Shown here piece after piece: positions 1,202 to 64,000 of a stretch of DNA of 64,000 bases (within the stretch, counting starts at the first letter, position 1; each line of letters begins with the position of its first letter). The notes under the pieces are model-generated. The model was given only the letters and a program-made list of their open reading frames with translations. It searched no databases and was not told where the DNA came from. The stretch lies in UHGV virus genome UHGV-1962423. One strand, given 5' to 3'. The position numbers were made by a program, and so were the translations under genes. This stretch comes from a virus.

Positions 1202-2710
1202 ATGCAACAGTATTTTGAAATTCCGTCGTTAGACGCGACCATTCGCAAACCGATAATCGATGGCGTTATACAACGTGTACTTAATGAATCAGGTATTGAT
1301 AAAGCAGCGGTTGTTTTCCTTGATGAATTCAATAGCGCTCATCAACCCGATTCCACGTTAGGCGACGGTACAGAAGTTGAGTACAGCTCGCCTGAAAAGG
1401 TGTATGTTGAAGTAGAAGAAGAACGCGATGAGTGGGCCAGAATCAATCGTCAGGTTGGTCAGCAAGCCGAACCGTACTTCTTTGAAAACTCCGTCGATCA
1501 GGTGCGTGCCTGGCCCGTTAGAACGATGTATAACGTAACGGTGACGTTACGACGTACCAGTGCTTCTCGCGATGAGTTATTGCGCTGGACAAACCGTTTA
1601 GACTCGTTAGTGGACATGGGTCGCTATTCGACAATGACCGAGTCAGAAGCGTTTTATTATATTCCGAAGCCAGCACTGAAATTGTTGAATGCCTGTTATG
1701 TCGCCGCAGGGACTCGTGTACCGACGTTTGACGATTTTAAAGCCTATCTCAAGGCGTACTTTACACCCGACGTGTTTCGCGCTGCTAACGTTGCCGGTGG
1801 ACAGGAATCTATTGCGGTTCGCTATGCACCTACTCGCTTAGAGACTGTATACGACGTTCAGACACCTGCCTGGGATAAAGACGAGAACCACTGGGAAGCT
1901 ACATTCGTCGTGCGTTTCTCTTATCAACGTCCTGAAGAGATTGTGGTTTCGTATCCGTATATCATCAACCAGACACCGCTTCCTGATGAATATTGGCCAG
2001 AGATAGATCCACCGTGGGTGTCTAACGAAGAACTGGTGTATCGTCATCCGCAACAAAAGAATCTCGATTCAACGTGGTGGATTAACGAAACCCGTCAGTA
2101 TATTCGTTTACCGTATCTACTGTCACCGACAGAACAGTTCCACCGTACACATTCCCCGTTAAAAGATAAACTCTTACACGTTTTCGGAACAGACGTTGTA
2201 TTTGATGAAGACAACATGAGCTCACCGAAAGTGTTATCTGTGGAGGATTTACCGTACGAGTGGAATCCAGATTTGTTGCCGTATATCGAACACTGTCGAG
2301 CAATAGACCCTACCGGGCAGACAGGTGTCTTCCGTGTGGAGCTGTTCGAAGAAGGACAAATCATCGAACCGCGTTTCTATCATTGGGAAGACAATACCTT
2401 CTTTTTGAAAGGACGTGATTTAAAAGTTAACAAGAGTTACTACCTAACCGAATCGGTGATGTTCGACTGGCGAGGGATGAACCTGTGGCCACTCCAGCTC
2501 TATCCTAAAGCTGCGAAGGTGTTGATAGAATGGTTATTTCCGAAATGGGATGTACCGGACTGGTGGTGGGATAAACCCGTATTACCGCCTAGTGTTGTCG
2601 ACGACATTAATAAACTGATTCCTAACGTAGAAGCCCGCGTCTTGCTGACGGTGCTGAACTCGACTGTGATTACCATGCGAGGGACAGAGAATGCTCAAAG
2701 CGAAGCGTGA
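1202..2710 (+). CDS. hypothetical protein (502 aa)
   Basis: Long ORF, AAGGAA RBS before ATG 1202; first of a tightly coupled five-gene block. Confidence 0.8.
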   Translation: MQQYFEIPSLDATIRKPIIDGVIQRVLNESGIDKAAVVFLDEFNSAHQPDSTLGDGTEVEYSSPEKVYVEVEEERDEWARINRQVGQQAEPYFFENSVDQVRAWPVRTMYNVTVTLRRTSASRDELLRWTNRLDSLVDMGRYSTMTESEAFYYIPKPALKLLNACYVAAGTRVPTFDDFKAYLKAYFTPDVFRAANVAGGQESIAVRYAPTRLETVYDVQTPAWDKDENHWEATFVVRFSYQRPEEIVVSYPYIINQTPLPDEYWPEIDPPWVSNEELVYRHPQQKNLDSTWWINETRQYIRLPYLLSPTEQFHRTHSPLKDKLLHVFGTDVVFDEDNMSSPKVLSVEDLPYEWNPDLLPYIEHCRAIDPTGQTGVFRVELFEEGQIIEPRFYHWEDNTFFLKGRDLKVNKSYYLTESVMFDWRGMNLWPLQLYPKAAKVLIEWLFPKWDVPDWWWDKPVLPPSVVDDINKLIPNVEARVLLTVLNSTVITMRGTENAQSEA

Positions 2711-4061
2711 TAAGCCGTCAACATTTGAACCCGTAGACCGGCCTATCCCCGAATTAAATAAACCACAGGACGGTGTAAAAGAAACCACCAATATCGTTAC
2801 GCAACCCACACGTACAACCGTTACTGATTTAGACCGTATTCCAAAGCAATACCTAATGAAGTATCTGGAGGGGTCAGCGTGGACGGTGGACTTCTTTAAC
2901 TTCCTGAAAGGAAGAAACGACGCCAAGAAGTTTTTCGATTCGAAAGTGCTTACACCTGACCAACAGGTGGAGAAAATCATCGGGTTGGAGCTGCGTGTAA
3001 CGTCACCTCTCGACCGAAGCCAAGACACCACGAACAAAACGTTCAGCATGTCAGGCGCTGCAACAATTGCAAACTCGATTATCCCTAACGAAGGTTGCTT
3101 TTTCATCGCCCCTATCGGTGACGGTCGTTTCGCGTTGTTTAACGTTACCAACGTTGTGCGTATGTCGAATAACAAAGTCGCGACGTACAACATTGAATAC
3201 ACGTTACTTTTCGAAGTTGACCCAGAAACCGCAGAAACGATTCGTCGTTGTACCGTACGTGAATACTACTACGTTGCAGAGCGTGCCTGGACAGGTGGTG
3301 ATACACTTCTCACACCGAAAGAGTACCGTGCGTTCCTGGAAGTCGTTGACGCGATTGAAGACATTGAACAGACATATGTGAAACGTTTCTACGACGGTGA
3401 AACGGCCACGTTGTTGTTCCCACACGATCGTCACAGCGACGGTTTGCGTAGCCGTGCTTACTACGACGTGTTCTTAGCGCTGTTTGTGCGTGCGGTGGGG
3501 TTACGTACCGTAGGTAAGGATATTCAGATTTATCCGCATCCACCGATGAACGTGGAAGACATTGAAACGGTGTGGACAGCGCTGCTGCAACAGTCGCCAA
3601 CGTTCTTAGCAGATTACAAACGTGACAGCACGGTGTGGCAAACGAAAACTTTCCGTACGATGCAACATCGTAACTCGGTAACGTGGTCGTTGATCTCTGA
3701 TACCCGGTTCTTTACGGAAGAGTTAAAGCCAGGTTACGGGATGGCGCAACGTTTCCCCGGTCAGTGGCCAGAATGGAAACCATTTGAACCGGTTGAAGTT
3801 GAAAACTATCGTGGGAACGAAGGGGAGTCTATTCCGGCCTTCCTACCACTGTCCTTTAAACCGTATTTGCTGAGCGAGACGTTCTACGACGGTTCTTACA
3901 GTTCGTTGTTGGAATACGGCTTGTACTTGTATCTGCATAAACGTCCGCTACCGTCGGTAATTGCGTTAAAACTGTTTGAGGAAGTTTATAAGCTCCCGAA
4001 AGACGCACAGTTCTATTACATTCCGATGGTGTATCTGCTTTTAAGATATTCGAGGGATTAA
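2691..4061 (+). CDS. hypothetical protein (456 aa)
   Basis: Long ORF; start overlaps end of upstream gene by 20 nt; GAGGGA RBS. Confidence 0.8.
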   Translation: MLKAKRDKPSTFEPVDRPIPELNKPQDGVKETTNIVTQPTRTTVTDLDRIPKQYLMKYLEGSAWTVDFFNFLKGRNDAKKFFDSKVLTPDQQVEKIIGLELRVTSPLDRSQDTTNKTFSMSGAATIANSIIPNEGCFFIAPIGDGRFALFNVTNVVRMSNNKVATYNIEYTLLFEVDPETAETIRRCTVREYYYVAERAWTGGDTLLTPKEYRAFLEVVDAIEDIEQTYVKRFYDGETATLLFPHDRHSDGLRSRAYYDVFLALFVRAVGLRTVGKDIQIYPHPPMNVEDIETVWTALLQQSPTFLADYKRDSTVWQTKTFRTMQHRNSVTWSLISDTRFFTEELKPGYGMAQRFPGQWPEWKPFEPVEVENYRGNEGESIPAFLPLSFKPYLLSETFYDGSYSSLLEYGLYLYLHKRPLPSVIALKLFEEVYKLPKDAQFYYIPMVYLLLRYSRD

Positions 4062-44123: not shown

Positions 44124-44687
44124 GTGGCCACATCTTACGTACCTGATTTGAGTCTGACCTCAGCAGAGCTAGTGGTCGCTTTAATCAATCATGATAACGG
44201 GTTACAGCTTACGCTAAACGAAATCCGTATTAGCGGAACCGTAACAAACCCATCACCAACAACTTCGCGTCGTAACACCATCACCGAAATCAGTAAAATC
44301 AGAAAACCGGATGGTGCGTCTGTTGTGGTCTACTACGACAGACTTGACGCCGATGAGGTATTAACGTCTGAACCTATTTTGATTTCGTTAGACGGTACCG
44401 AAGCGAATATCCGTGACGTTCTGAGTGTTGTAAATGAACACTGCGGTACGAACTTACAGCCTGAAGACTTACGCGTTTCTGATATTACTTCAGGTAACGA
44501 TCCTATTGCCGTTAACGTTGCCGACGATTCACCTGCGTGGATGAATGCGTTTATGGTGACGTTATTTGATAAAACTGAGCGTGCGTTAGCGAACGAAGAA
44601 GATGAAATCTTCTGCATCGGTGACGATAGCGTTCTTACCTTTGAGGTTCCAGATGACGACTCAGCTGAAGAAAACCCGACTACATGA
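44124..44687 (+). CDS. small protein paired with downstream tail fibre, module A (187 aa)
   Basis: GTG start with GGAGGG RBS; clear paralog of 50418..50930 (PDLSLTS...V.L.NHD..LQL...NE, shared C-terminal CGIGDDSV.LTF); both sit directly upstream of a receptor-binding gene. Confidence 0.7.
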   Translation: MATSYVPDLSLTSAELVVALINHDNGLQLTLNEIRISGTVTNPSPTTSRRNTITEISKIRKPDGASVVVYYDRLDADEVLTSEPILISLDGTEANIRDVLSVVNEHCGTNLQPEDLRVSDITSGNDPIAVNVADDSPAWMNAFMVTLFDKTERALANEEDEIFCIGDDSVLTFEVPDDDSAEENPTT

Positions 44688-44892
44688 ACTTGATGATTTT
44701 TACCGGTAATGGAGGACAAAGCAAACTTTTATCAAGACTTAGCAAACCAAAATCATGAAAACGCGAAATTGAACATCGCTTTCACGTTAGAAGATGATGT
44801 ATTAAAACCAGGGCAATAGTAACCCGCTTATAAAAAATTGGGGGGTAAACTACTCTCCTGATCTTTTAGCTCCCGATAGAGAATTAAATATC

Positions 44893-47800
44893 ATGGCTAA
44901 AGCGGTAAAGAAAATTCGTTTACACGATTTACGTCCATACACCGGTGATATCGGTGAAGGCGTTTTACTTTTCTCCAAGGATGAGAAAGATTATAAGTTA
45001 CCAGTCCGTGAGGTTATTGCAGATATTGACACCGTACGTAATGCGGTGGCTGATGCACAAACAGCAGCAGCACAATCACAAGAAGCTGCAACTCAGGCTA
45101 CGCAAGCAAAAGTTTTAGCAGAAGCAGCAAAACAACAAACTGACACAGTTGCGGCAACGGTTGCACAACAAGCGCAAACCGTAACCGAAAAAGCAACAGA
45201 AGTCAGTACAAAACATACCGAAGTGTTAGCCGCGAAAACGGCGGTAGACGCTCAGGCTGTGTCCATTAATGAGAAAGCACAAGCGGTAGCGACAAGTGAG
45301 GCAAACGTCACACAAGCAGAAACTACCGTTACGAAGAAAGCAGAAACTGTTGCCACACAAGCCGGGCGGGTCGAACAGTCACTTACGGCAGTTAACGAAG
45401 CTGTTGCGTCGGTAGAGTCGTCGAAAGCTGCCGTAGAAGCTAAAGCAACACAAGTTACTTCAGACAAAGAAACCGCAGAGAATGCGGCAACTCGTTCTGA
45501 GGCAGCCGCTAAGCGTGCGGAAGAAATCGTTGCTCAAGGTACTGTTGATGCAACAACGACCAGTAAAGGTGTCGTTAAACTTAATAATACCTTAACCAGT
45601 GACTCTGTTACTGAAGCGGCTACACCGTCAACGGTTAAGCAGTTAAATGATGAATTGCAGTTAAAAGCAAACCGTCACAACCCAACTTTTACCGGTGTGG
45701 TAAAAGCACCGACTCCTGCTTCGGATTCTAACGACACGAGCGTCTCAACGACTGCATGGGTACGGCAAGCGATTGCTGAATTAGTGGACTCTTCACCCGA
45801 GACGTTAGATACGTTATCAGAAATTGCAGCCGCGTTAGGAAACGATCCTAACTTTGCGACAACGATAACGAACCAACTAGCGGGTAAACAGCCGTTAAGT
45901 CCGTTACTGACAGCGATTGCCGCAGTCACCACCGCTGCAAACAAACTCCCTTACTTTACCGGTAGTAATCAGGTAGGGTTAGCGGATTTCACCTCGACTG
46001 CTCGCGAATTATTAGCGAAAGGGTCGACGGCCGATATCATCAGCTTCCTGGGGTTGAAAACCACCGTTGATAAAGCTGCGGGCGCTATGCAACGTAGTTC
46101 TAACGGTGCCGATATTCCCGATAAAGCCACCTTCGCGAAGAACATCGGGTTGTCAGCAGAGACGTACCTGAAGTTTAATGGGGAGATGCCAGTAGATGCA
46201 GACATCAACACCTTCGGCCCGGTTGAAGCGTTTATGGGCGTTTGGTCTAAAGCCACGTCTACGAACGCAACAGTTGCAAAGAATTTTCCAGAAGAAAACG
46301 CAGTTGGTTGTTTAGAAGTTTTCAAAGCGGGTAACTACAGCGGAAGTCAACGTTTTACTGTACGTAACGGTAACATCTATACACGTCATCTTACTGCTGC
46401 ATGGAATGGGACAAACGGTCCTTGGTCAGAATGGCGTAATGTTGCTGGTTCCGCCAGAACGTTGAACGAACAAAATAATCTGAATGACTTGGGTGGTGAG
46501 GCCGCACTAGGTGTTTGGAGAAACAGTTCGAGTACATTAGCAACAACCGCGCTGAATTATCCTGAAGAAGGCTCTTTTGCCCAGGGCGTATTAGAAGTTC
46601 TCAAAGGTGGCAACTATAGTTACACACAACGCTACACTACCCGCAGAGGCAATGTATACGTTCGTTGTCTACAAGCCACGTGGGACGCTTCAAACCCGCA
46701 ATGGGAAGAATGGCGCTGTGTTGGTCATCAATCTGTCAGCACATATTTCGAAGGCGATCTCGACACGTTAACTTCGCCTAACCGTTATAGCATTACTGAT
46801 AAAGCGACAAACGTTCCTTTAATCGACGGTACTAAAATTATCGGTATCTTGGACGTCAGTCGTCGTTTTGATAACATTAGTGTCGAACAAAAATTCACCT
46901 CGTTTGGTTCTGGGAGCAAAACTACAGGGCGTATTTTCACACGTGTATTCTCCGGTCAATCAAACGGTAAATGGAGTGAGTGGCGAGAGGTTTTCACCTC
47001 GTATTCACTTCCGTTAGTTTTAGGTATCGGTGGGGTTGCAGCTAAGGTTGACCCGTTAGACTGGCAAACCTACGACTTCGTTCCTGGACAGATGTTAACG
47101 ACGCCGTTGAACACCATGAAAAACATTCCTGCAGGAATGGATTGGGGTACTATTGACGGTAACTTAGTTAACATCCTTGTAGGGCCGTCTGACGACACCG
47201 GTACTGGTCGGAGTATGCTGGTTTGGCGTAGCACAGTGTCTGTTGCTAACTATCGCTTCTTTGCGGTACGTATCGCTGGTGAGAAGGGTAGTCGTACGAT
47301 TACGCCGCGTCAGATGCCTGTGTTGAACGCAGCGCACACCTGGTCAGAGAAACAAACGTTCTCTAAAGGTTTAGCGGGTGAATTAACCGGTAATGCTTCT
47401 TCAGCAACGAAACTTCAAACAGCCCGTTTAATCGGCGGCGTAAGTTTCGACGGCACCAAGGACATTGCACTCCCTGGCGTTAACGCACAAGGTACGCAGA
47501 ACACCACTGGGAATGCGGCTACCGCAACCAAATTACAAACGGCTAGAAATATCAACGGTGTGAAATTCGATGGCTCTGGAGACATCAATATCAACACCTT
47601 AGTAGGTCGTGGACGTGTCACTGCTCTGGCTGGATCAAACAAAGGTACACCTGGTATCCAGATGTACGAGGTTTACAATAACGGTTATCCGACCGCGTAT
47701 GGTAATTTACTGCATTTAGGTGGTGCTACTGCCGTAGGTGAAGGTGAACTACTGATCGGTTGGTCTGGTACCAGTGGCGCACACGCACCTGTTTATATCC

Positions 47801-49209
47801 GTAGTCGTCGAGACACTACAGATGCGCCGTGGTCAGAATGGGCGCAAGTTTATACTGCACGAGACAGCATTCCGGGTGTCAACACCACAGGTAATCAGGA
47901 TACGACCGGAAACGCAGCTACCGCTACAAAACTTAAAACCACACGTAAAATAGGCGGGGTTAATTTTGACGGAACGGGTGATATTAACCTACCAGGTGTA
48001 AACCAGCAGGGCAACCAGAACACAACAGGTAACGCTGCGACAGCGACTAAACTCCAGACTGCCCGAAATATTGGTGGTGTGGCTTTCGATGGTACTAAAG
48101 ACATCAGTTTACCTGGGGTAAACCAAACAGGGAATCAGTCAACTACGGGGAACGCTGCTACTGCAACGAAGTTGCAGACAGCAAGAAGTATCAACAACGT
48201 ACCATTCGATGGTTCGAAAGATATTACTCTAACGCCAAGTAATATCGGTGCGGCTGCCTCCTCAATGACTTGGTTAAATACCGGGGATAATGGTGCAGCG
48301 CTTAGTACAGATTCTTTTATTACTTTGTTGCAAAATAACGGGGCTTTTAATTCCAGAACTTGGATAGCCCGATGCTCTTGGGCGTATGCTCAAAATGGCG
48401 TGATTCCAGATAGTGAAACAAAGTGCGGTACTATTCCACTTGCAGGCTCAGTTATTGAAGTTGTAAGTTTTGGGATGACCAACTACACCATTCGTATCAC
48501 AACCCCTACGACGACATCGGTTAGCGGAGCAAAAACCAACTCTGAGTTTATTTATTGCTATAATGGTAAAGATTATTCTCCAGGTTGGCGACGGCAGTAT
48601 AACACTGTTAATAAACCGTCTGCTAGTGACGTTGGCGCTCTACCAACTGGTGGCGGTACTGTCAGTGGCGATTTGACGGTTAATGGTAAACTGGTTACGA
48701 AAAATGCCGATTTTCGAATTGCTTACGGTAGTTACGGTTTCATTTTACGTAACGATGGCAATAGCACCTATTTCTTAGTAACAGCATCTGGTCAAGCTGC
48801 AACGGGTTCCTGGAATAACTTACGACCGATGTATTTTAGCAACTCTACCGGTCAAGTAACCTTCGGGCACAACGTTACTGGTAACGGGAACGGTTCGTTT
48901 AACGACGTACAGATTCGTTCTGACCGTCGTAACAAACGTAATCTGGTGAAACTGGATAATGCATTAGACCGTTTAGAACTCCTTACCGGGTATCTGTACG
49001 AAGTTCAACATCCTGACGATGGATGGAATACTTCGGTAGGCTTAATTGCCCAGGATGCATTAGTTGCGTTACCTGAATTGGTTACTGAAGACGATGACGC
49101 TATTTCTGGTGAAAAACGTTTACGTTTGAACTATAATGGTGTTATTGCGTTGTTGGTAGAGGGCATTAAAGACCTTCGTCGTGAGCTTAAGGAACTCAAG
49201 GGGAAATAA
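44893..49209 (+). CDS. long tail fibre protein with C-terminal intramolecular chaperone domain (1438 aa)
   Basis: N-terminal anchor shared with 50934 gene; Ala/Thr/Gln-rich coiled-coil; tandem TGNAATATKLQTAR.IGGV.FDGTKDI.LPGVN repeats like T4 gp12/gp34/gp37 fibre repeats; C-terminus SDRRNKRNLVKLDNALDRLELLTGYLYEV...GLIAQDALVALPELV matches the self-cleaving chaperone of endosialidase/L-shaped fibre proteins. Confidence 0.85.
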   Translation: MAKAVKKIRLHDLRPYTGDIGEGVLLFSKDEKDYKLPVREVIADIDTVRNAVADAQTAAAQSQEAATQATQAKVLAEAAKQQTDTVAATVAQQAQTVTEKATEVSTKHTEVLAAKTAVDAQAVSINEKAQAVATSEANVTQAETTVTKKAETVATQAGRVEQSLTAVNEAVASVESSKAAVEAKATQVTSDKETAENAATRSEAAAKRAEEIVAQGTVDATTTSKGVVKLNNTLTSDSVTEAATPSTVKQLNDELQLKANRHNPTFTGVVKAPTPASDSNDTSVSTTAWVRQAIAELVDSSPETLDTLSEIAAALGNDPNFATTITNQLAGKQPLSPLLTAIAAVTTAANKLPYFTGSNQVGLADFTSTARELLAKGSTADIISFLGLKTTVDKAAGAMQRSSNGADIPDKATFAKNIGLSAETYLKFNGEMPVDADINTFGPVEAFMGVWSKATSTNATVAKNFPEENAVGCLEVFKAGNYSGSQRFTVRNGNIYTRHLTAAWNGTNGPWSEWRNVAGSARTLNEQNNLNDLGGEAALGVWRNSSSTLATTALNYPEEGSFAQGVLEVLKGGNYSYTQRYTTRRGNVYVRCLQATWDASNPQWEEWRCVGHQSVSTYFEGDLDTLTSPNRYSITDKATNVPLIDGTKIIGILDVSRRFDNISVEQKFTSFGSGSKTTGRIFTRVFSGQSNGKWSEWREVFTSYSLPLVLGIGGVAAKVDPLDWQTYDFVPGQMLTTPLNTMKNIPAGMDWGTIDGNLVNILVGPSDDTGTGRSMLVWRSTVSVANYRFFAVRIAGEKGSRTITPRQMPVLNAAHTWSEKQTFSKGLAGELTGNASSATKLQTARLIGGVSFDGTKDIALPGVNAQGTQNTTGNAATATKLQTARNINGVKFDGSGDININTLVGRGRVTALAGSNKGTPGIQMYEVYNNGYPTAYGNLLHLGGATAVGEGELLIGWSGTSGAHAPVYIRSRRDTTDAPWSEWAQVYTARDSIPGVNTTGNQDTTGNAATATKLKTTRKIGGVNFDGTGDINLPGVNQQGNQNTTGNAATATKLQTARNIGGVAFDGTKDISLPGVNQTGNQSTTGNAATATKLQTARSINNVPFDGSKDITLTPSNIGAAASSMTWLNTGDNGAALSTDSFITLLQNNGAFNSRTWIARCSWAYAQNGVIPDSETKCGTIPLAGSVIEVVSFGMTNYTIRITTPTTTSVSGAKTNSEFIYCYNGKDYSPGWRRQYNTVNKPSASDVGALPTGGGTVSGDLTVNGKLVTKNADFRIAYGSYGFILRNDGNSTYFLVTASGQAATGSWNNLRPMYFSNSTGQVTFGHNVTGNGNGSFNDVQIRSDRRNKRNLVKLDNALDRLELLTGYLYEVQHPDDGWNTSVGLIAQDALVALPELVTEDDDAISGEKRLRLNYNGVIALLVEGIKDLRRELKELKGK
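47385..48240 (+). repeat. tandem in-frame coding repeats of the fibre motif
   Basis: At least five copies of the ~25-50 aa unit; nucleotide copies differ at synonymous positions. Confidence 0.7.
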
Positions 49210-49212
49210 AGG

Positions 49213-49755
49213 ATGGCAGTTGTTGAAGTTCCAGGTTATATCGGTTCTTCTGCAAAGGAAGTTACTGGCGAAGAGATGATGTCTGAAGCGATGACCGAAC
49301 TCGGCGTTGTCGTACCAGGGATGATGTCTGAAATGGCAGGTCTGTCAATGGGTTGCTATGTAACGTTTGAGGAGTGGACTACCGTTGAAGATGGCCTTGA
49401 TGTTCGATGGATCGGTGCGTCTACTTCCGAGTGGACAGACGGCTACGGCAAACCGGTCGTTAAAGGAAAAATATCCGGGGCGAAGATGTTTGGTTTGAAT
49501 GTCGAAGCGGAGCTGATCGGAATGCACTATAAAAAGCATCCGCGATTCCCTTGGTCAGTCGAACTAAAATGTCGCTGCGAAAAAGGTAGCAATTTCAGTT
49601 ATACGTTAGACGGTGTAAGCGGTTCTGTATCGAGTGATGGTACCGGTACAACCGGAATGCAAATTCGTACATTCAAATTTAACAATTTCAGTGCAGCATT
49701 TAAGGAAAAGATAGAGCAAGTTGGTGTCAAGATGCCAACATCACGTAAATATTAA
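49213..49755 (+). CDS. hypothetical protein downstream of tail fibre, paralog 1 (180 aa)
   Basis: MAVVEVPGYIGSSAKEVTGEEMMSE...MGC; paralogous N-terminus to 49812 gene (MAV....G..GSSAK.ETGE..MS.A...LG...P.MMS.M.G.SMGC). Confidence 0.7.
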   Translation: MAVVEVPGYIGSSAKEVTGEEMMSEAMTELGVVVPGMMSEMAGLSMGCYVTFEEWTTVEDGLDVRWIGASTSEWTDGYGKPVVKGKISGAKMFGLNVEAELIGMHYKKHPRFPWSVELKCRCEKGSNFSYTLDGVSGSVSSDGTGTTGMQIRTFKFNNFSAAFKEKIEQVGVKMPTSRKY

Positions 49756-49811: not shown

Positions 49812-50315
49812 ATGGCGGTTAACTCGGGTTGGGTCGGTTCTTCGGCTAAGAGCGAAACGGGCGAACAGTGGATGAGCGCTGCGGGTGCCAAATTGGGATT
49901 GGGTAAACCTTTTATGATGAGTCAAATGGTGGGACGATCTATGGGCTGTAAAATTTCAACTGCTGCATATAGTGATTCTTTAGGTAAGAAATGGGGTGCT
50001 GTGGGATCAAGTTGGCCATTAACTCAGAAAAATCAGGGAACCATTCAAAACGCGGGTAACTGCGGGGTGGGAACTTTAGTAGGTATAGAGTTACAATTAA
50101 CGACGGTAGTTGCCAACGCAACGCCTACTCTAGCGGTCTATTTACAAGGCGGCAGGGCCTCTAACATCACTGCAAATCTAGGCGGTAACACTTGTGCGCT
50201 GACCTATCAGCAGGTTATTAATGGCCAACATTATTACTGGACCAATAACATTAGTGCCGCGTTCCAAAACGTGATGAAATCGACCGGTACACTAAGAGAT
50301 TTCAAAATTAGTTAA
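49812..50315 (+). CDS. hypothetical protein downstream of tail fibre, paralog 2 (167 aa)
   Basis: Paralog of 49213 gene; start codon directly after the G10 tract. Confidence 0.65.
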   Translation: MAVNSGWVGSSAKSETGEQWMSAAGAKLGLGKPFMMSQMVGRSMGCKISTAAYSDSLGKKWGAVGSSWPLTQKNQGTIQNAGNCGVGTLVGIELQLTTVVANATPTLAVYLQGGRASNITANLGGNTCALTYQQVINGQHYYWTNNISAAFQNVMKSTGTLRDFKIS

Positions 50316-50417: not shown

Positions 50418-50930
50418 GTGGAACAATTCACGCCAGATTTGTCGTTAACTTCACTTAACATGGTTATTTCACTGGTTAACCATGACCTCCAACTTGACTT
50501 GCAAGAGAATGAGGTCGAAGTCAGTGACGTAAAGACCAGTGACGAAATGGAACGTGACACCACTGCTGTTGTAAAGATAAAACGTTCTGGTAACAGAACG
50601 TTACAAATCTACTACAACCGTTTAACTGCAGAGCGGTGGTTAAACCGACAACCTGTACTTGTAAAAGTAACAGGCGAAGGGTTTAATGCGCACGATCTAA
50701 TCGAATCCATCAACACCGTTTGTGGTGCTAACTTACAAACCGACGATTTAACCGACCAGTCGTTCACGGTGGGTAAAGACGCGGTAATATTTAGCATCGC
50801 TCCGAGTTCCCTCGGCTACAAAGGTCAGTTCTCCGTGGTGGTTTTCGGTCCAGATGAAACACCGTGTGGTATCGGTGACGATTCTGTCGTGCTAACGTTT
50901 GACAATAAAATCTTAACCTTTGGAGAGTAA
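50418..50930 (+). CDS. small protein paired with downstream receptor-binding protein, module B (170 aa)
   Basis: GTG start with AGGAGG RBS; paralog of 44124..44687. Confidence 0.7.
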   Translation: MEQFTPDLSLTSLNMVISLVNHDLQLDLQENEVEVSDVKTSDEMERDTTAVVKIKRSGNRTLQIYYNRLTAERWLNRQPVLVKVTGEGFNAHDLIESINTVCGANLQTDDLTDQSFTVGKDAVIFSIAPSSLGYKGQFSVVVFGPDETPCGIGDDSVVLTFDNKILTFGE

Positions 50931-50933
50931 TAG

Positions 50934-53066
50934 ATGAGTCAGCCAATTGGAAAGAAGCGTATTCATGAGCTGGAAACATTTGAAGGTGAATTAGCAGGAG
51001 TCGTTCTGCTGATGTCCAAAGACGACAAAGAATATAAACTTGACGCATCTCGTTTACAAAACGATAAGCTGTATCTAGCTTGCGGTACACCTTTTCCTAA
51101 ACTAGTATTCCAAAACGATAAAACACTTTACAATATTAATCCGTACAGTGACTACGACACTTATGAAGTTTCTGCAAATAAAGGTCGGGTATCTAAAGTT
51201 ACTCGTGCCACATTTAGCGTGATGGCTGGGTCTTTATCGGTTGGCGAGAAAATACAACTTACAGTTACGCGCAATGGCGTACCATTTCAATTTGAAGTTA
51301 CCGTATCGGGACCGCGTATCACTACTCCCACTTGGACACTTCCAGTTAATGGCGGTAAATTGAGCGTAACGCCAACCTTTGAAGTAACTGACTATCAAGC
51401 CTATCCATATACCAACACCGGTAATCAACAGACCGCTGCCAGTTGGGAAATTTCCACTAGTGAAGATTTCTCAACTACAGTTTTCCAATCACTGAACGAC
51501 ACCGTCAACAAAACAACCATCAGTATCCCAGAAGGTAAGTTAGAACCAGGTCAAACTTACTACGCACGTGTTCGCTTCCATAACGCAGTAACCGAAAGTG
51601 ATTGGTCCGTTGTTCAATTCTCAGTCGGCGAAGCATTTATTCAGCGTCCTGCACTGATCGAACCCACCGTAGACATGGTGTTAAGCGCATCGAATATTAC
51701 ACTTAAAACTGATGTTTTTAAATGGGTCGGTGACGAACCTGCGGAGACCCACGTATCGACTGACTGGCAGGTTACTTACGGTAGCAACGATTTTGACGAA
51801 ATGAATAATCTCGTTAACCAATTAGAAGATGCGATTAACCTGACGTCGCTTAAATTACCGTCTGATCGGGTTTACGTTAATAACAGTTATCGTGCACGCG
51901 TGCGTTTTCGTGGTGAGAGAAGCGTCAGTGATTGGTCTGAACCTTTAACGTTCCGTGTAAGTCGCGGGAACGTACCAACAAGTGAATTCCAGTCAATTTC
52001 TGCTTCTGGATTTACAGGTAATTCAATCGGTGCTGAGTTGGCATGTACTGACGACGGTTTGCTGTTTGCTGCTACTGGCGTTGCACAGAAAGCGAAATTC
52101 TTACATATCTTTAAGAAAGACTTCCCGTCTTACAACAAAGTTGCCTCTTTAACAGCTGCTACTGAGGTTGACGCAGACAGAGATGGTCGCTGTCCGGTCA
52201 GTATGTCAGCCGACGGTAAGATTATTGTTGTCGGTGTTAGCGCATCTAAAGCTAACGAAGACCACGGCGAAGTTATCGTTTACCGTAACCCAGATAACGC
52301 TGAGTGGAGTACAATCAACGGAATAACTTTAGCGGGATTACCCACAGAAGGGTTCCATGGCCTTGCAGTAAAACTGTCAAAAGACGGCAATCGTTTGATT
52401 GTGGGTAACGGTACGAAAGTGCTGTCTATGTATTCCAATACCGATCAATTTGCTACACGTACGGCTGTGTCGCCGACACTAAGTGCCGAAGACGCCACTT
52501 GTGGTGGTATTGGTAGCATTGCAATGTCTGAAGACGGTAACGGTTTAGTGCTTGGCGAAACTAACGGAACGAAATTCCACGTACTGGCTTGGGAATCGGA
52601 TAGTTGGGTGACTAAGGCATCTATTACACCAAAAGACTTGACTGAGAAAGCAACGATTAAAGTCGCTGCTTCTTCTGACTTGTCTACGATTCTTGTTTCT
52701 GTAGTTGAGACACACAAATACTACGTTTACAAGAAAACCGGTGATAGTTGGTCTCTGTTCCAAACCTTGGATTATACCGAACTGGATTACTCCATTACTT
52801 CTACCCGTTACCCGACGGGAGACATTAATGTTGCGCCTTCCGGAAGCTGGTTAATTTTCGGTATGGTGGGTTCGTTGGGTTCTATTTTCGAATTTCGTAA
52901 TAGTACCTACCAACGACAAAATAGCATTTACGGCAGTAGTCTTAGCGATCCTGAGAATTACCACTTCTATACGTCACAAGCCATCAGTGCACAAAACGAT
53001 TTGTTCGTCGGTGCTGATGTTAAAGAAAGTGCTTCGTACTTCCCACAAATCAAAGTTTACATGTAA
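50934..53066 (+). CDS. second receptor-binding protein (tail fibre/spike) with shared N-terminal anchor (710 aa)
   Basis: N-terminus KKRIHELETFEGELAGVVLLMSKDDKEYKL parallels KKIRLHDLRPYTGDIGEGVLLFSKDEKDYKL of the 1438-aa fibre; central Ig/FN3-like stretches; C-terminal repeated ..DG..IVVG.. units suggestive of a beta-propeller (inference). Confidence 0.6.
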   Translation: MSQPIGKKRIHELETFEGELAGVVLLMSKDDKEYKLDASRLQNDKLYLACGTPFPKLVFQNDKTLYNINPYSDYDTYEVSANKGRVSKVTRATFSVMAGSLSVGEKIQLTVTRNGVPFQFEVTVSGPRITTPTWTLPVNGGKLSVTPTFEVTDYQAYPYTNTGNQQTAASWEISTSEDFSTTVFQSLNDTVNKTTISIPEGKLEPGQTYYARVRFHNAVTESDWSVVQFSVGEAFIQRPALIEPTVDMVLSASNITLKTDVFKWVGDEPAETHVSTDWQVTYGSNDFDEMNNLVNQLEDAINLTSLKLPSDRVYVNNSYRARVRFRGERSVSDWSEPLTFRVSRGNVPTSEFQSISASGFTGNSIGAELACTDDGLLFAATGVAQKAKFLHIFKKDFPSYNKVASLTAATEVDADRDGRCPVSMSADGKIIVVGVSASKANEDHGEVIVYRNPDNAEWSTINGITLAGLPTEGFHGLAVKLSKDGNRLIVGNGTKVLSMYSNTDQFATRTAVSPTLSAEDATCGGIGSIAMSEDGNGLVLGETNGTKFHVLAWESDSWVTKASITPKDLTEKATIKVAASSDLSTILVSVVETHKYYVYKKTGDSWSLFQTLDYTELDYSITSTRYPTGDINVAPSGSWLIFGMVGSLGSIFEFRNSTYQRQNSIYGSSLSDPENYHFYTSQAISAQNDLFVGADVKESASYFPQIKVYM

Positions 53067-62636: not shown

Positions 62637-63161
62637 ATGACCAATCAAGAAACTATCTTCGACCTTATTAAAAAGGCTAACCCAGACGCTGAGTTCGACA
62701 CCACCAAAGTCACACTGGGTGACCCGGTCGTAACCACCGGTACGTACAATACCGAAATCACAGTTGCGTCAATTAAGAATCTCGGTTATACTAACGAACA
62801 AACGTTCCAGTATAACCGGATCGACGCAGGTTTGTATTTCCTGAACGTATTACCGAAACTGTTGGTGGAATCGGCAACAACGACCGCTGACTTACTGCCT
62901 GTCATTAACGAGCAGTACAGCCTAACCCTTACAGAAGACGATGTATGGGTAGAGCAGGTTGGTGAGTTACCGTTAGACGGAAGCGCAATCGAACACGGTA
63001 TTTTCTTCCGTCCTGAGTGTCTGACCTGGGTTGGCGGTTTTACAGTGCGAGTTGCGCGTAAACCGGCTGGCGCTACGCCACCCGAGACATGGAGGAGCCC
63101 CAGACCGCCGAATCCTGGCGCACCATGCCCCAGAAGGCGGCCGAGTGGTGGAAAAAGGTAA
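62637..63161 (+). CDS. paralog of 61775 gene, disrupted at the composition junction near 63070
   Basis: First ~145 codons are phage-like and align to the upstream paralog; the remaining frame runs into high-GC DNA with implausible Pro/Arg-rich translation. Confidence 0.5.
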   Translation: MTNQETIFDLIKKANPDAEFDTTKVTLGDPVVTTGTYNTEITVASIKNLGYTNEQTFQYNRIDAGLYFLNVLPKLLVESATTTADLLPVINEQYSLTLTEDDVWVEQVGELPLDGSAIEHGIFFRPECLTWVGGFTVRVARKPAGATPPETWRSPRPPNPGAPCPRRRPSGGKR

Positions 63162-63229
63162 ACGCAGGTGAAATTGAGAACCCGTTTATTTTCGAGCACA
63201 GCAACGAGCCGGAGGACTACGAGTTTTAA
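63089..63229 (+). CDS. small hypothetical ORF in high-GC segment (46 aa)
   Basis: Not in track. ATG 63089 to TAA 63227-63229; followed by a 10-bp-stem hairpin (63241-63273). Weak evidence. Confidence 0.25.
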   Translation: MEEPQTAESWRTMPQKAAEWWKKVNAGEIENPFIFEHSNEPEDYEF

Positions 63230-63304
63230 TTCCAAAGCGCGGAAGAAGGGGCGGCCGGTACGTCCCTTCTTCCTGTGCATTGCTTATAAAGGAGTGTCAC
63301 AGCT

Positions 63305-64000
63305 ATGGCAAAGACCATCATCACCGCCGCGCTGACCGGCGCGGTCACCCCCGCGGGCTACAAGATCCCCGAGACGCCCCAGCAGATCGCCAACGAGGCT
63401 TACGACGCCTGGAAGCTGGGCGCCGCCGTGGTACACCTGCACATGCGGGCCGACGACGGCCTGGGTGCCATGGACAAGGAGAAATTCCGGGAGACCATCC
63501 GGCTTATCCGCAGCCACCAGGACTGTGATGTCATTATCAACTGCACCTCCTCCGGCGCTTCTGCCGAGCATCCCGCCACGGATGAGGAGCGGATGGCCCA
63601 TCACCGGGAGCTGGAGGGCATCGAGATGGGTTCCTATGATGCCGGTACCTTCAACTGGATGCCCGGCGGCGTGTTCGTCAACTCCCCCCAGTTCCTCGAG
63701 AAGCTGGGCGATCTTTACATGGAGAAGGGCATCAAGCCGGAGCTGGAGATCTTTGACGCTGGCATGCTGGGCGTGGCCAGCTACTTCGTGAAGAAGGGCC
63801 ACCTGTCCACCCCCTGCCACTACCAGTTCTGCCTGGGCGTGCTGGGCGGCATGCCCGCCACGGTGGAGAACCTGCTCTACCTGGTGCAGCACATCCCCGC
63901 CGGTTCCACCTGGTCGGCCTTCGGCGTGGGCAAGGGCCCCCTGCCCATCCTGTTCGCCTCCCTGGCCCTGGGCGGCCACATCCGCGTGGGCATGGAGGAC
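63305..64000 (+). CDS. kce: 3-keto-5-aminohexanoate cleavage enzyme-like protein (BKACE/DUF849), 3'-truncated at window edge
   Basis: Not in track because no stop in window. AAAGGAG RBS then MAKTIITAALTGAVTP..., HLHMRADDG, GGHIRVGMED; GC-rich third codon positions; frame open to the end of the window. Confidence 0.7.
   Translation, partial: MAKTIITAALTGAVTPAGYKIPETPQQIANEAYDAWKLGAAVVHLHMRADDGLGAMDKEKFRETIRLIRSHQDCDVIINCTSSGASAEHPATDEERMAHHRELEGIEMGSYDAGTFNWMPGGVFVNSPQFLEKLGDLYMEKGIKPELEIFDAGMLGVASYFVKKGHLSTPCHYQFCLGVLGGMPATVENLLYLVQHIPAGSTWSAFGVGKGPLPILFASLALGGHIRVGMED

Follow-up and report, generated by a model that had tools for sequence, protein, structure and literature searches.

The tail-fibre gene and its neighbours

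The window analysed here is the whole 64,000-nucleotide stretch of the virus genome UHGV-1962423, and the phage it represents is an SPN3US/Asesino-like jumbo phage. The gene under study encodes a large tail-fibre protein, which is matched by PHROG tail-fibre families (phrog_6722 at E 8e-250, and others besides) and by the PDB sequences 8ju3, 5yvq, 4uxe and 6f45, with residues 1278-1436 matching 6f45_A (long tail fiber distal subunit) at E 5e-13. A megablast search of the gene against GenBank phages returned zero matches. The N-terminal part of the protein consists of an anchor and then an Ala/Thr/Gln-rich rod; the middle comprises four knob-like domains and a five-unit shaft array, followed by a P1/Mu S-like domain (Table 1). 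With both C-terminal homology and an adjoining gp38-like gene, the locus has the two hallmarks of a distal fibre tip of the S16/T2 type (gp37 plus gp38 adhesin). A further ORF at 49812-50315 is a paralogue of the gp38-like adhesin, and the two have similar N-termini.

The shaft array consists of five units of 40 amino acids (120 nt), which start at 47386, 47506, 47905, 48025 and 48145, and the conserved cores have exact limits of 47386-48234; the span 47385-48240 marked out in the preliminary description thus covers the array. The unit consensus is TGNAATATKLQTARxIGGVxFDGxxDIxLPGVNxxGxQxT, and the core G-N-A-x-x-A-T-K-L-x-T-A-R-x-I-x-G-V-x-F-D-G is present within the repeated unit of about 40 residues. 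Every one of the five units scores 65-70 bits against a profile made from the units themselves. Unit 2 is the best conserved across phage types, sharing 29/30 residues with the related locus L006 and 26/30 with the P1-like L017, and is recognisable even in P1-like fibres, while the core of unit 5 forms the boundary with a swapped C-terminal receptor-binding module. The four knob-like domains, each ending in W[SE]EW, are a second protein-level repeat family in the same gene and served as an internal control; the fourth matches side tail fibre proteins. The repeats on the sense strand also give rise, as repetitive by-products, to two minus-strand ORFs within the array (47415-47642 and 47895-48104).

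Table 1. Features of the tail-fibre locus, as window positions or as residues of the fibre protein
Feature	Position	Strand	Details
Tail-fibre gene	44893..49209	+	1438 aa; ORF, Pfam, PHROG and PDB sequence matches
Phage_fiber_2 repeat	aa 221-260		Pfam; single copy
Knob-like domains 1-3	46258..47000	+	W[SE]EW at aa 511, 604, 694
Shaft unit 1	47386..47505	+	TGNASSATKLQTARLIGGVSFDGTKDIALPGVNAQGTQNT; 67 bits
Shaft unit 2, 30-aa core	47506..47595	+	TGNAATATKLQTARNINGVKFDGSGDININ; abuts the knob insert directly
Knob-like domain 4	47596..47868	+	aa 902-992 (91 aa), ending in PWSEWAQVYTARDS; between units 2 and 3
Shaft unit 3	47905..48024	+	TGNAATATKLKTTRKIGGVNFDGTGDINLPGVNQQGNQNT
Shaft unit 4	48025..48144	+	TGNAATATKLQTARNIGGVAFDGTKDISLPGVNQTGNQST
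Shaft unit 5, 30-aa core	48145..48234	+	TGNAATATKLQTARSINNVPFDGSKDITLT
Gp34_trimer domain	aa 1213-1314		Pfam
Peptidase_S74 intramolecular chaperone	aa 1343-1397		Pfam
gp38-like tail-fibre adhesin	49213..49755	+	directly downstream of the fibre gene; phrog_1121 'tail fiber adhesin', E 4.8e-20

Relationship to known fibres

When the 357-residue array segment was searched with tblastn, 99% of its length aligned with the P1 tail-fibre protein, at 60.7% identity, and it also matched P7 S (annotated Sc), P2-like H and the T6/RB distal long tail fibre gp37. The fibre has shaft repeats of the P1 S/P2 H type, and matches to PHROG tail-fibre families have E values down to 1e-164. The unit motif, the 40-residue period and the insertion of a knob after a unit are all shared with the S-type fibres of P1 and P7. 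P1-like loci mostly carry 2-4 units, compared with five here and up to 13 in the locus L009. The present fibre differs from those of P1 and P7 in belonging to a jumbo phage and in continuing into a C-terminal S74 chaperone and then gp38-like adhesins, with no invertible Sv segment.

No Pfam or NCBIfam model covers the shaft array; a Pfam search with the array segment to E 10 gave only a chance match to DUF6160, and a PDB sequence search with the same segment gave none. The alpha-beta fibrous repeat of T4 gp34 and gp12 (PF03406, Phage_fiber_2), which has been described structurally (PMC5537660), is likewise a short module repeated along the shaft of trimeric fibres, but the TGNAATATKLQTAR units are distinct from it, as PF03406 matches only residues 221-260 of the fibre. 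A profile of the units did match phage L Dec in its C-terminal stalk (6e3c, residues 97-133, ANAETADKLSTARTI...SFDGSANVTI; E 7e-5), as well as gp47, the tail fibre of PhiM1 (8vbx; E 3e-4). Dec is a capsid decoration protein and carries the element just once, interrupted by a 7-residue insertion. The fold of the unit can be proposed only tentatively, since the model of the Dec stalk is of low resolution and the profile matches are weak. The fibre itself is probably a homotrimer on the virion, to judge from the S74 chaperone domain, the Gp34_trimer domain and the analogy with the Dec stalk.

Divergence of the units in protein and DNA

Pairwise identity between the shaft units is 53-80% at the protein level and 48-67% at the DNA level, the latter corresponding to 33-52% mismatch, and the longest exact run common to any two units is 9 nt. 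A self dot plot of the protein gave 276 off-diagonal windows of 12 residues in which 8 or more were identical, most of them offset by 40, 80, 133, 173, 213 or 253 residues, whereas in the DNA dot plot no 36-nt window reached 81% identity. Tandem Repeats Finder reported nothing in the fibre gene, where the best ungapped DNA repeats extend to no more than 27 nt at 62-78% identity. Nei-Gojobori comparison between units gave pS values of 0.75-1.08, which are saturated, with dN of 0.14-0.36; random recoding gives a pS of 0.79 ± 0.04. The protein repeat therefore far exceeds chance expectation, and divergence of the DNA has reached the limit set by synonymous freedom. The preliminary description, which had proposed both the dot plot and a dN/dS-style comparison, was accurate on this point: the three strings that it quoted as encoding the same peptide with different codons occur exactly at units 3, 4 and 5, where each encodes NAATATKL.

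It had gone on to suggest that the codon differences minimise nucleotide identity and would thereby suppress homologous recombination. Homologous recombination cannot work efficiently on units that differ by 33-52% mismatch and share exact runs of at most 9 nt, so the low identity does have the proposed consequence; that the identity is minimised by design or by selection is unsupported, as set out below.

Codon identity compared with random synonymous choice

Codon identity between units is 28%, compared with 32-35% in synonymous shuffles. The nulls adopted were shuffles within the array, shuffles within each unit, and controls between genomes. Gene-wide codon usage was rejected as the main null because the codon usage of the array is flatter than that of the rest of the gene, possibly as a result of mosaic origin. 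Counted over homologous conserved positions, the 40-residue units have 71 of 252 codons identical, against 100.7 ± 9.1 under the codon usage of the gene, 88 ± 6.6 in the within-array shuffle (P 0.002) and 86 ± 6.3 in the within-unit shuffle (P 0.006). For units of 30 residues the count was 63/223, against 72 ± 5 in shuffles. The P value of the deficit thus shifts with unit length, from about 0.24 for the 14-residue core, the segment singled out in the preliminary description, through about 0.05 for 30 residues to 0.006 for 40 residues, and these values differ only through the placement of the unit ends. Heterogeneous codon usage between units was considered as a cause of the deficit and explains little of it (within-unit null 71.3, compared with 72.3).

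Within the gene, codon identity between units is 0.283, compared with 0.343 for non-orthologous pairs between genomes, and the adjacent units 3 and 4 have just 2 of 24 codons identical. In register, the longest run measures 9 nt, compared with a shuffled median of 11-12 nt (P 0.04-0.2). The knob repeats, in contrast, are at the random level, with 57 identical codons against 52.9 expected.

Homologous arrays in other phages and genomes

Each shaft unit has its own orthologue in five close relatives (L001-L005). Orthologous units share 23-30 of 30 residues and up to 26 of 30 codons, whereas non-orthologous pairs have about 30% identical codons. Throughout the clade, as in the L006 group (71% identical), the units follow a collinear order, and copy number varies among close relatives (5 versus 6 units). 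Module-swap breakpoints between related phages coincide with the edges of the array.

As the IMG/VR loci could not be separated into independent clades, mosaic sharing joining 35 loci in one single-linkage cluster, independent lineages were drawn from a scan of GTDB species genomes. The z scores for codon identity were mildly negative in all five close relatives (-0.6 to -1.4) and about zero or positive in P1-like arrays. Thirty-five arrays from diverse bacterial phyla were at or above random, with a mean z of +2.9, and only 2 of the 35 had z < -1.64, about the chance expectation. Fifteen old arrays without recent copies gave a pooled codon identity of 0.438, where 0.388 was expected. Units that are identical or nearly so in DNA are tolerated in this family: the 13 units of L009 form pairs spanning 60% to 100% nucleotide identity, and in five further loci (L079, L082, L114, L144 and L147) the median between units is 86-100%. 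Arrays with such units include those from Flavobacteriales, Saccharibacteria and others. A literature search turned up no relevant earlier report of fibre repeats diversifying synonymously.

Origin of the synonymous divergence

We consider it likely that old duplications together with selection at the protein level explain the array, with no convincing sign of a device that minimises identity. The five units would be paralogues of long standing, copies of a shaft module that is widespread in tail fibres; the module probably folds only once trimerised and lengthens the beta-structured rod by a fixed amount. Some 20-25 of the 30 core residues would be held constant in all copies by purifying selection at the protein level, while silent positions would have evolved neutrally until they were fully randomised. 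New copies would arise by duplication or by unequal, out-of-register exchange, being identical in DNA at first and decaying thereafter. The trimeric, beta-structured role of the unit and this history of neutral decay are what we infer; the silent sites are saturated, the units are old, homologous arrays span a range of states of divergence, and the deficit below random is not replicable. Protein repeats in general follow a similar course (Persi, Wolf and Koonin 2016; PMC5120217): old copies under purifying selection are kept vertically and diverge at silent sites, as here. Low intragenic recombination is a by-product, because the repeats are old and their silent sites randomised.

That the number of identical codons lies somewhat below every null counts against this explanation, since a neutral process goes below random by chance alone. 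It also speaks for active codon diversification, in which selection through the load of unit deletions, caused by recombination or slippage at short exact matches, drove codon identity below random. Given the large size of phage populations, even very weak selection can be effective. The 40-residue units fall below the shuffles at P 0.002-0.006, within-gene identity is below that between genomes, the in-register run is shorter than the null median, and the z scores of L001-L005 are all negative. Yet the effect is not significant for the 14-residue core (P ~0.2) and marginal for 30 residues (P 0.04-0.055), and the members of the clade, having common ancestry, amount to about one observation. 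Independent arrays are at or above random, homologues retain units identical in DNA, no deficit is seen in the knob repeats of this gene, and the number of units still varies in close relatives despite the divergence. Furthermore, RecA needs at least 31-34 bp of exact pairing and Red-beta at least 23-27 bp (PMC3945230); runs of 9 nt and of about 12 nt are both far below this range, so homologous recombination cannot distinguish a 'minimised' array from a 'random' one. We therefore regard active diversification as improbable, and hold the same doubt about it for this jumbo-phage clade taken by itself. A weak, second-order selection that disfavours short exact matches, acting through avoidance of slippage or deletion and giving codon identity of about 28% rather than a random 34% or so in this clade, is similarly unlikely. 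The deficit is small, depends on unit boundaries and is absent from independent homologues and from the knob repeats.

A different possibility is that the units came from the fibres of different phages and were joined by horizontal exchange at homologous units, their divergence predating the joining. The edges of the array do coincide with sharp changes in nucleotide identity to relatives. L002 has 90-98% identity as far as 47350, 73-87% within the array and some 45-55% beyond 48250, whereas for L001 the figures are 51-68% upstream of 47000 and 91-97% from 48100 on. Synonymous identity also varies with the unit and the relative compared (for unit 1, 18/25 with L003 and 6/22 with L005), and the flatter codon usage of the array points the same way. 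The idea of fibre mosaicism via shared motifs is a classical one (Haggard-Ljungquist 1992; Sandmeier 1992 and 1994; all cited in PMC3945230). However, the collinear order of the units in the clade and in the L006 group implies that the array was inherited whole and not reassembled, and exchange swaps in orthologues, which leaves the original difference between paralogues unexplained. As the source of the divergence mosaic assembly is thus unlikely; it complements the decay of old duplicates and does not exclude it.

Implications

On the reading that we favour, neutral decay of old copies under protein-level selection, conserved peptide repeats written in different codons within a fibre gene need no special explanation and hold little new biology; such repeats should be judged against random synonymous choice as the null, with independent homologues as a check. 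Engineers scramble codons on purpose to stabilise repetitive genes. Engineered scrambling has the effect that the preliminary description proposed, whereas the pattern here is statistically close to random drift; if the weak-selection reading were true, the array would be a natural counterpart of that practice.

The shaft unit is very widespread and unmodelled in Pfam and NCBIfam, and a profile of it would improve the annotation of fibres across many phyla. Since the family spans arrays from DNA-identical to fully saturated, it offers a handy natural series for the birth and decay of repeats. Among related jumbo phages the array is a joint for the exchange of N-terminal and receptor-binding modules, which bears on how host range is predicted and engineered.

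Structure and divergence of the shaft repeats

The five shaft units of the tail fibre each score 65-70 bits against a profile built from them, and any two of them are 53-80% identical as peptides and 48-67% as DNA. The preliminary description held that successive copies encode the same peptide with different codons, and this was borne out. Its three quoted strings occur exactly and each encodes NAATATKL; a protein self dot-plot gave 276 windows of 12 residues with at least 8 identities, mostly at offsets of 40, 80, 133, 173, 213 and 253 residues, while the nucleotide plot gave none (36-nt windows at 81% identity). By the Nei-Gojobori method pS is saturated (0.75-1.08), with dN at 0.14-0.36. 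Tandem Repeats Finder detected nothing in the array, where ungapped DNA repeats reach at most 27 nt at 62-78% identity and the longest exact run common to any two units is 9 nt. Inside the array lie two antisense ORFs that are themselves repetitive; most likely they merely reflect the repeats on the sense strand and are no genes.

Features of the tail-fibre gene, its repeat array and the surrounding DNA
Feature	Position	Strand	Details
Fibre cassettes	44124-49209; 50418-53066		
Tail-fibre ORF holding the array	44893-49209	+	1438 aa
Ala/Thr/Gln/Glu-rich stretch	45025-45540 (aa 45-215)		
Phage_fiber_2 repeat, one copy	aa 221-260		Pfam
Knob-like domains	46258-47000; 47596-47868		W[SE]EW ends at aa 511, 604, 694, 980
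Shaft repeat units	starts 47386, 47506, 47905, 48025, 48145		period 40 aa (120 nt)
Knob-like domain inserted after unit 2 core	47596-47868		91 aa
Antisense ORF	47415-47642	-	75 aa
Antisense ORF	47895-48104	-	69 aa
Gp34_trimer domain	aa 1213-1314		Pfam
Peptidase_S74 intramolecular chaperone	aa 1343-1397		Pfam
gp38-like tail-fibre adhesin	49213-49755		next ORF after fibre; phrog_1121, E 4.8e-20
Small protein paralogous to the preceding	49812-50315		downstream of fibre
High-GC end	63000-64000		last 1 kb

The fibre gene is of an already known kind. Its product matches many PHROGs tail-fibre families (top E 8e-250), and its PDB sequence matches, confined to the region downstream of the array, are to Mu/P1-type S protein (8ju3, 5yvq), T4 gp34 (4uxe, 5nxf) and the S16 distal fibre (6f45). 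Megablast of the gene against GenBank phages gave no match; its nearest fibre relatives lie on IMG/VR contigs of 150-225 kb, and virion genes in other parts of the window have about 75% DNA identity to Erwinia phages Asesino and phiEaH2 and SPN3US-like Salmonella jumbo phages. The fibre cassette is present twice, each time as a virion protein of 170-187 aa (phrog_2935) followed by a fibre with a common N-terminal anchor (MAKAVKKIRLHDL... and MSQPIGKKRIHEL...); the second fibre has 710 aa and a wholly different distal part. The long Ala/Thr/Gln/Glu-rich stretch near the N-terminus of the first fibre is probably an alpha-helical coiled-coil rod, and has a weak SMC-like coiled-coil match (E 2e-4) far below the cutoff. 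At the end of the window GC rises from about 0.44 to 0.60-0.70 and the ORFs look unlike the rest; a chimeric assembly, the end of a contig or DNA of foreign origin may account for this.

No model in Pfam or NCBIfam covers the repeat unit. The T4 gp34/gp12 alpha-beta repeat (PMC5537660) was rejected as its identity, since that repeat matches only aa 221-260. The unit profile does match the C-terminal stalk of phage L Dec (6e3c, E 7e-5), which is disordered as a monomer, and tail fibre gp47 of Pectobacterium phage PhiM1 (8vbx, E 3e-4). Most likely the unit is a piece of the shaft that depends on the trimer, lengthens the fibre and alternates with knob domains, a role that would account for the strong protein-level constraint.

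Recombination between copies and codon choice

Suppressed recombination between copies, also put forward in the preliminary description, is real: the units have 33-52% mismatch and no exact match longer than 9 nt, whereas efficient homologous recombination needs exact matches of about 31-34 bp (RecA) or 23-27 bp (Red-beta), and phage recombinases tolerate regular divergence of up to about 17% (PMC3945230; for the MEPS concept see also PMC8918686). Shuffling the synonymous codons yields longest in-register runs of 11-12 nt, which are as useless for recombination as the observed state, so recombination-driven selection could not tell that state from randomness.

Codon choice was assessed at homologous positions with the same degenerate amino acid in both units compared, by counting how often the codons agreed. 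With 40-aa units 71 of 252 were identical, against 88 ± 6.6 after shuffling within the array (P 0.002) and 86 ± 6.3 within units (P 0.006); with the 30-aa conserved core the count was 63 of 223 against 72 ± 5 (P 0.04; within units, P 0.055), and with the 14-aa peptide of the preliminary description 31 of 124 against 34.5 ± 3.5 (P 0.2; within units, P 0.24). A null drawn from the gene's own codon usage gives 100.7 ± 9.1 for the 40-aa units, a value inflated because codon use in the array is more even than in the rest of the gene. The array thus lies about two standard deviations below random, with a significance that varies with the unit boundaries chosen. Codon identity was 28.3% within the window and 34.3% between its units and non-orthologous units of distant homologues, a control without within-gene selection. 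The knob-like domains form a second repeat family, also synonymously saturated and with codon identity exactly at the random expectation; as an internal control, the four in this gene have 57 identical codons at their conserved residues, where 52.9 are expected.

Independent arrays

An IMG/VR scan found 78 loci carrying the same array. For L001-L005, five close relatives with protein identities of 78-88%, the z value of the identical-codon count relative to random synonymous choice was mildly negative (-0.6 to -1.4); these share ancestry with the window, since orthologous units have up to 26 of 30 codons in common. P1-like and enterobacterial fibres, which make up a large group, had z around zero or positive, and their codon identity was higher within a gene than between genomes. 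Scanning GTDB genomes, one per species, with unit profile A1 gave matches in Flavobacteriales, Acinetobacter, Weissella, Pseudomonas, Verrucomicrobia, Planctomycetota, Saccharibacteria, Nomurabacteria, Treponema, Anaerolineaceae and two archaeal MAGs, among many lineages, with 56-82% identity over about 36 aa. The (pro)phage regions that hold the unit (L079-L157) belong to very distant lineages, among them Bacteroidota, Firmicutes, Proteobacteria, Verrucomicrobia, Planctomycetota, CPR bacteria and the two archaeal MAGs.

Among the 35 GTDB loci with at least three units, mean z was +2.9 and median z +1.8, and only 2 fell below -1.64, as expected by chance. Units are 86-100% DNA-identical in several arrays (L079 at 2509-3200, L082, L114, L144 and L147), and such copies in homologous fibres are recent duplicates; the 15 arrays without a pair above 75% nucleotide identity gave, when pooled, a codon identity of 0.438 against 0.388 expected (z +4.3). 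The 13-unit array L009 (1488-3850) has pairs spanning 60-100% nucleotide identity, which shows that a unit-knob-unit block was recently duplicated as an exact copy. Neither the repeat family nor this gene thus shows a general avoidance of identical codons.

The proposal that selection has actively minimised DNA identity is accordingly not supported, the independent arrays and knob repeats being at or above random. The only selection that could tell the observed state from randomness would be a very weak one, acting against slippage between short repeats. Its evidence is one deficit of about 2 sigma in the window array, which varies with the unit boundaries, and we consider it quite improbable. 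Old repeats under purifying selection are expected to end in just this pattern.

Age of the units and module exchange

When the window units are compared with those of the relatives, each matches its own diagonal counterpart best, in protein and in codons, whereas pairs off the diagonal resemble random ones. Unit 2, just ahead of the knob, can be recognised in the L006 group (71% identical) by 29 of 30 residues and in the P1-like L017 by 26 of 30. The units must therefore have become distinct before these very different phages diverged or passed the module between them. Gain and loss of units nevertheless continue, as the close relatives L001 and L003 have six against five in the window. Their extra unit sits between window units 3 and 4 and, being only 62-72% nucleotide identical to its neighbours, is not a recent in situ duplication.

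Sliding-window nucleotide identity to L001-L005 changes abruptly at the array edges (47350-48250), where the breakpoints of module swaps fall. L002 is 90-98% identical to the window up to 47350, 73-87% inside the array and about 45-55% after 48250; L001 is 51-68% identical before 47000, 73-85% inside the array and 91-97% from 48100 until the gene stops. Within the array, identity to all five is 73-89%. The array is thus the joint where N-terminal rod and C-terminal receptor-binding modules reassort. This agrees with the classical idea that tail fibres are mosaics joined at conserved motifs, reportedly that of Haggard-Ljungquist (1992) and Sandmeier (1992, 1994), which PMC3945230 lists among its references. 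Orthologous units of different phages (70-95%) are similar enough for relaxed phage recombination, whereas paralogous units within the gene (about 60%) are too dissimilar.
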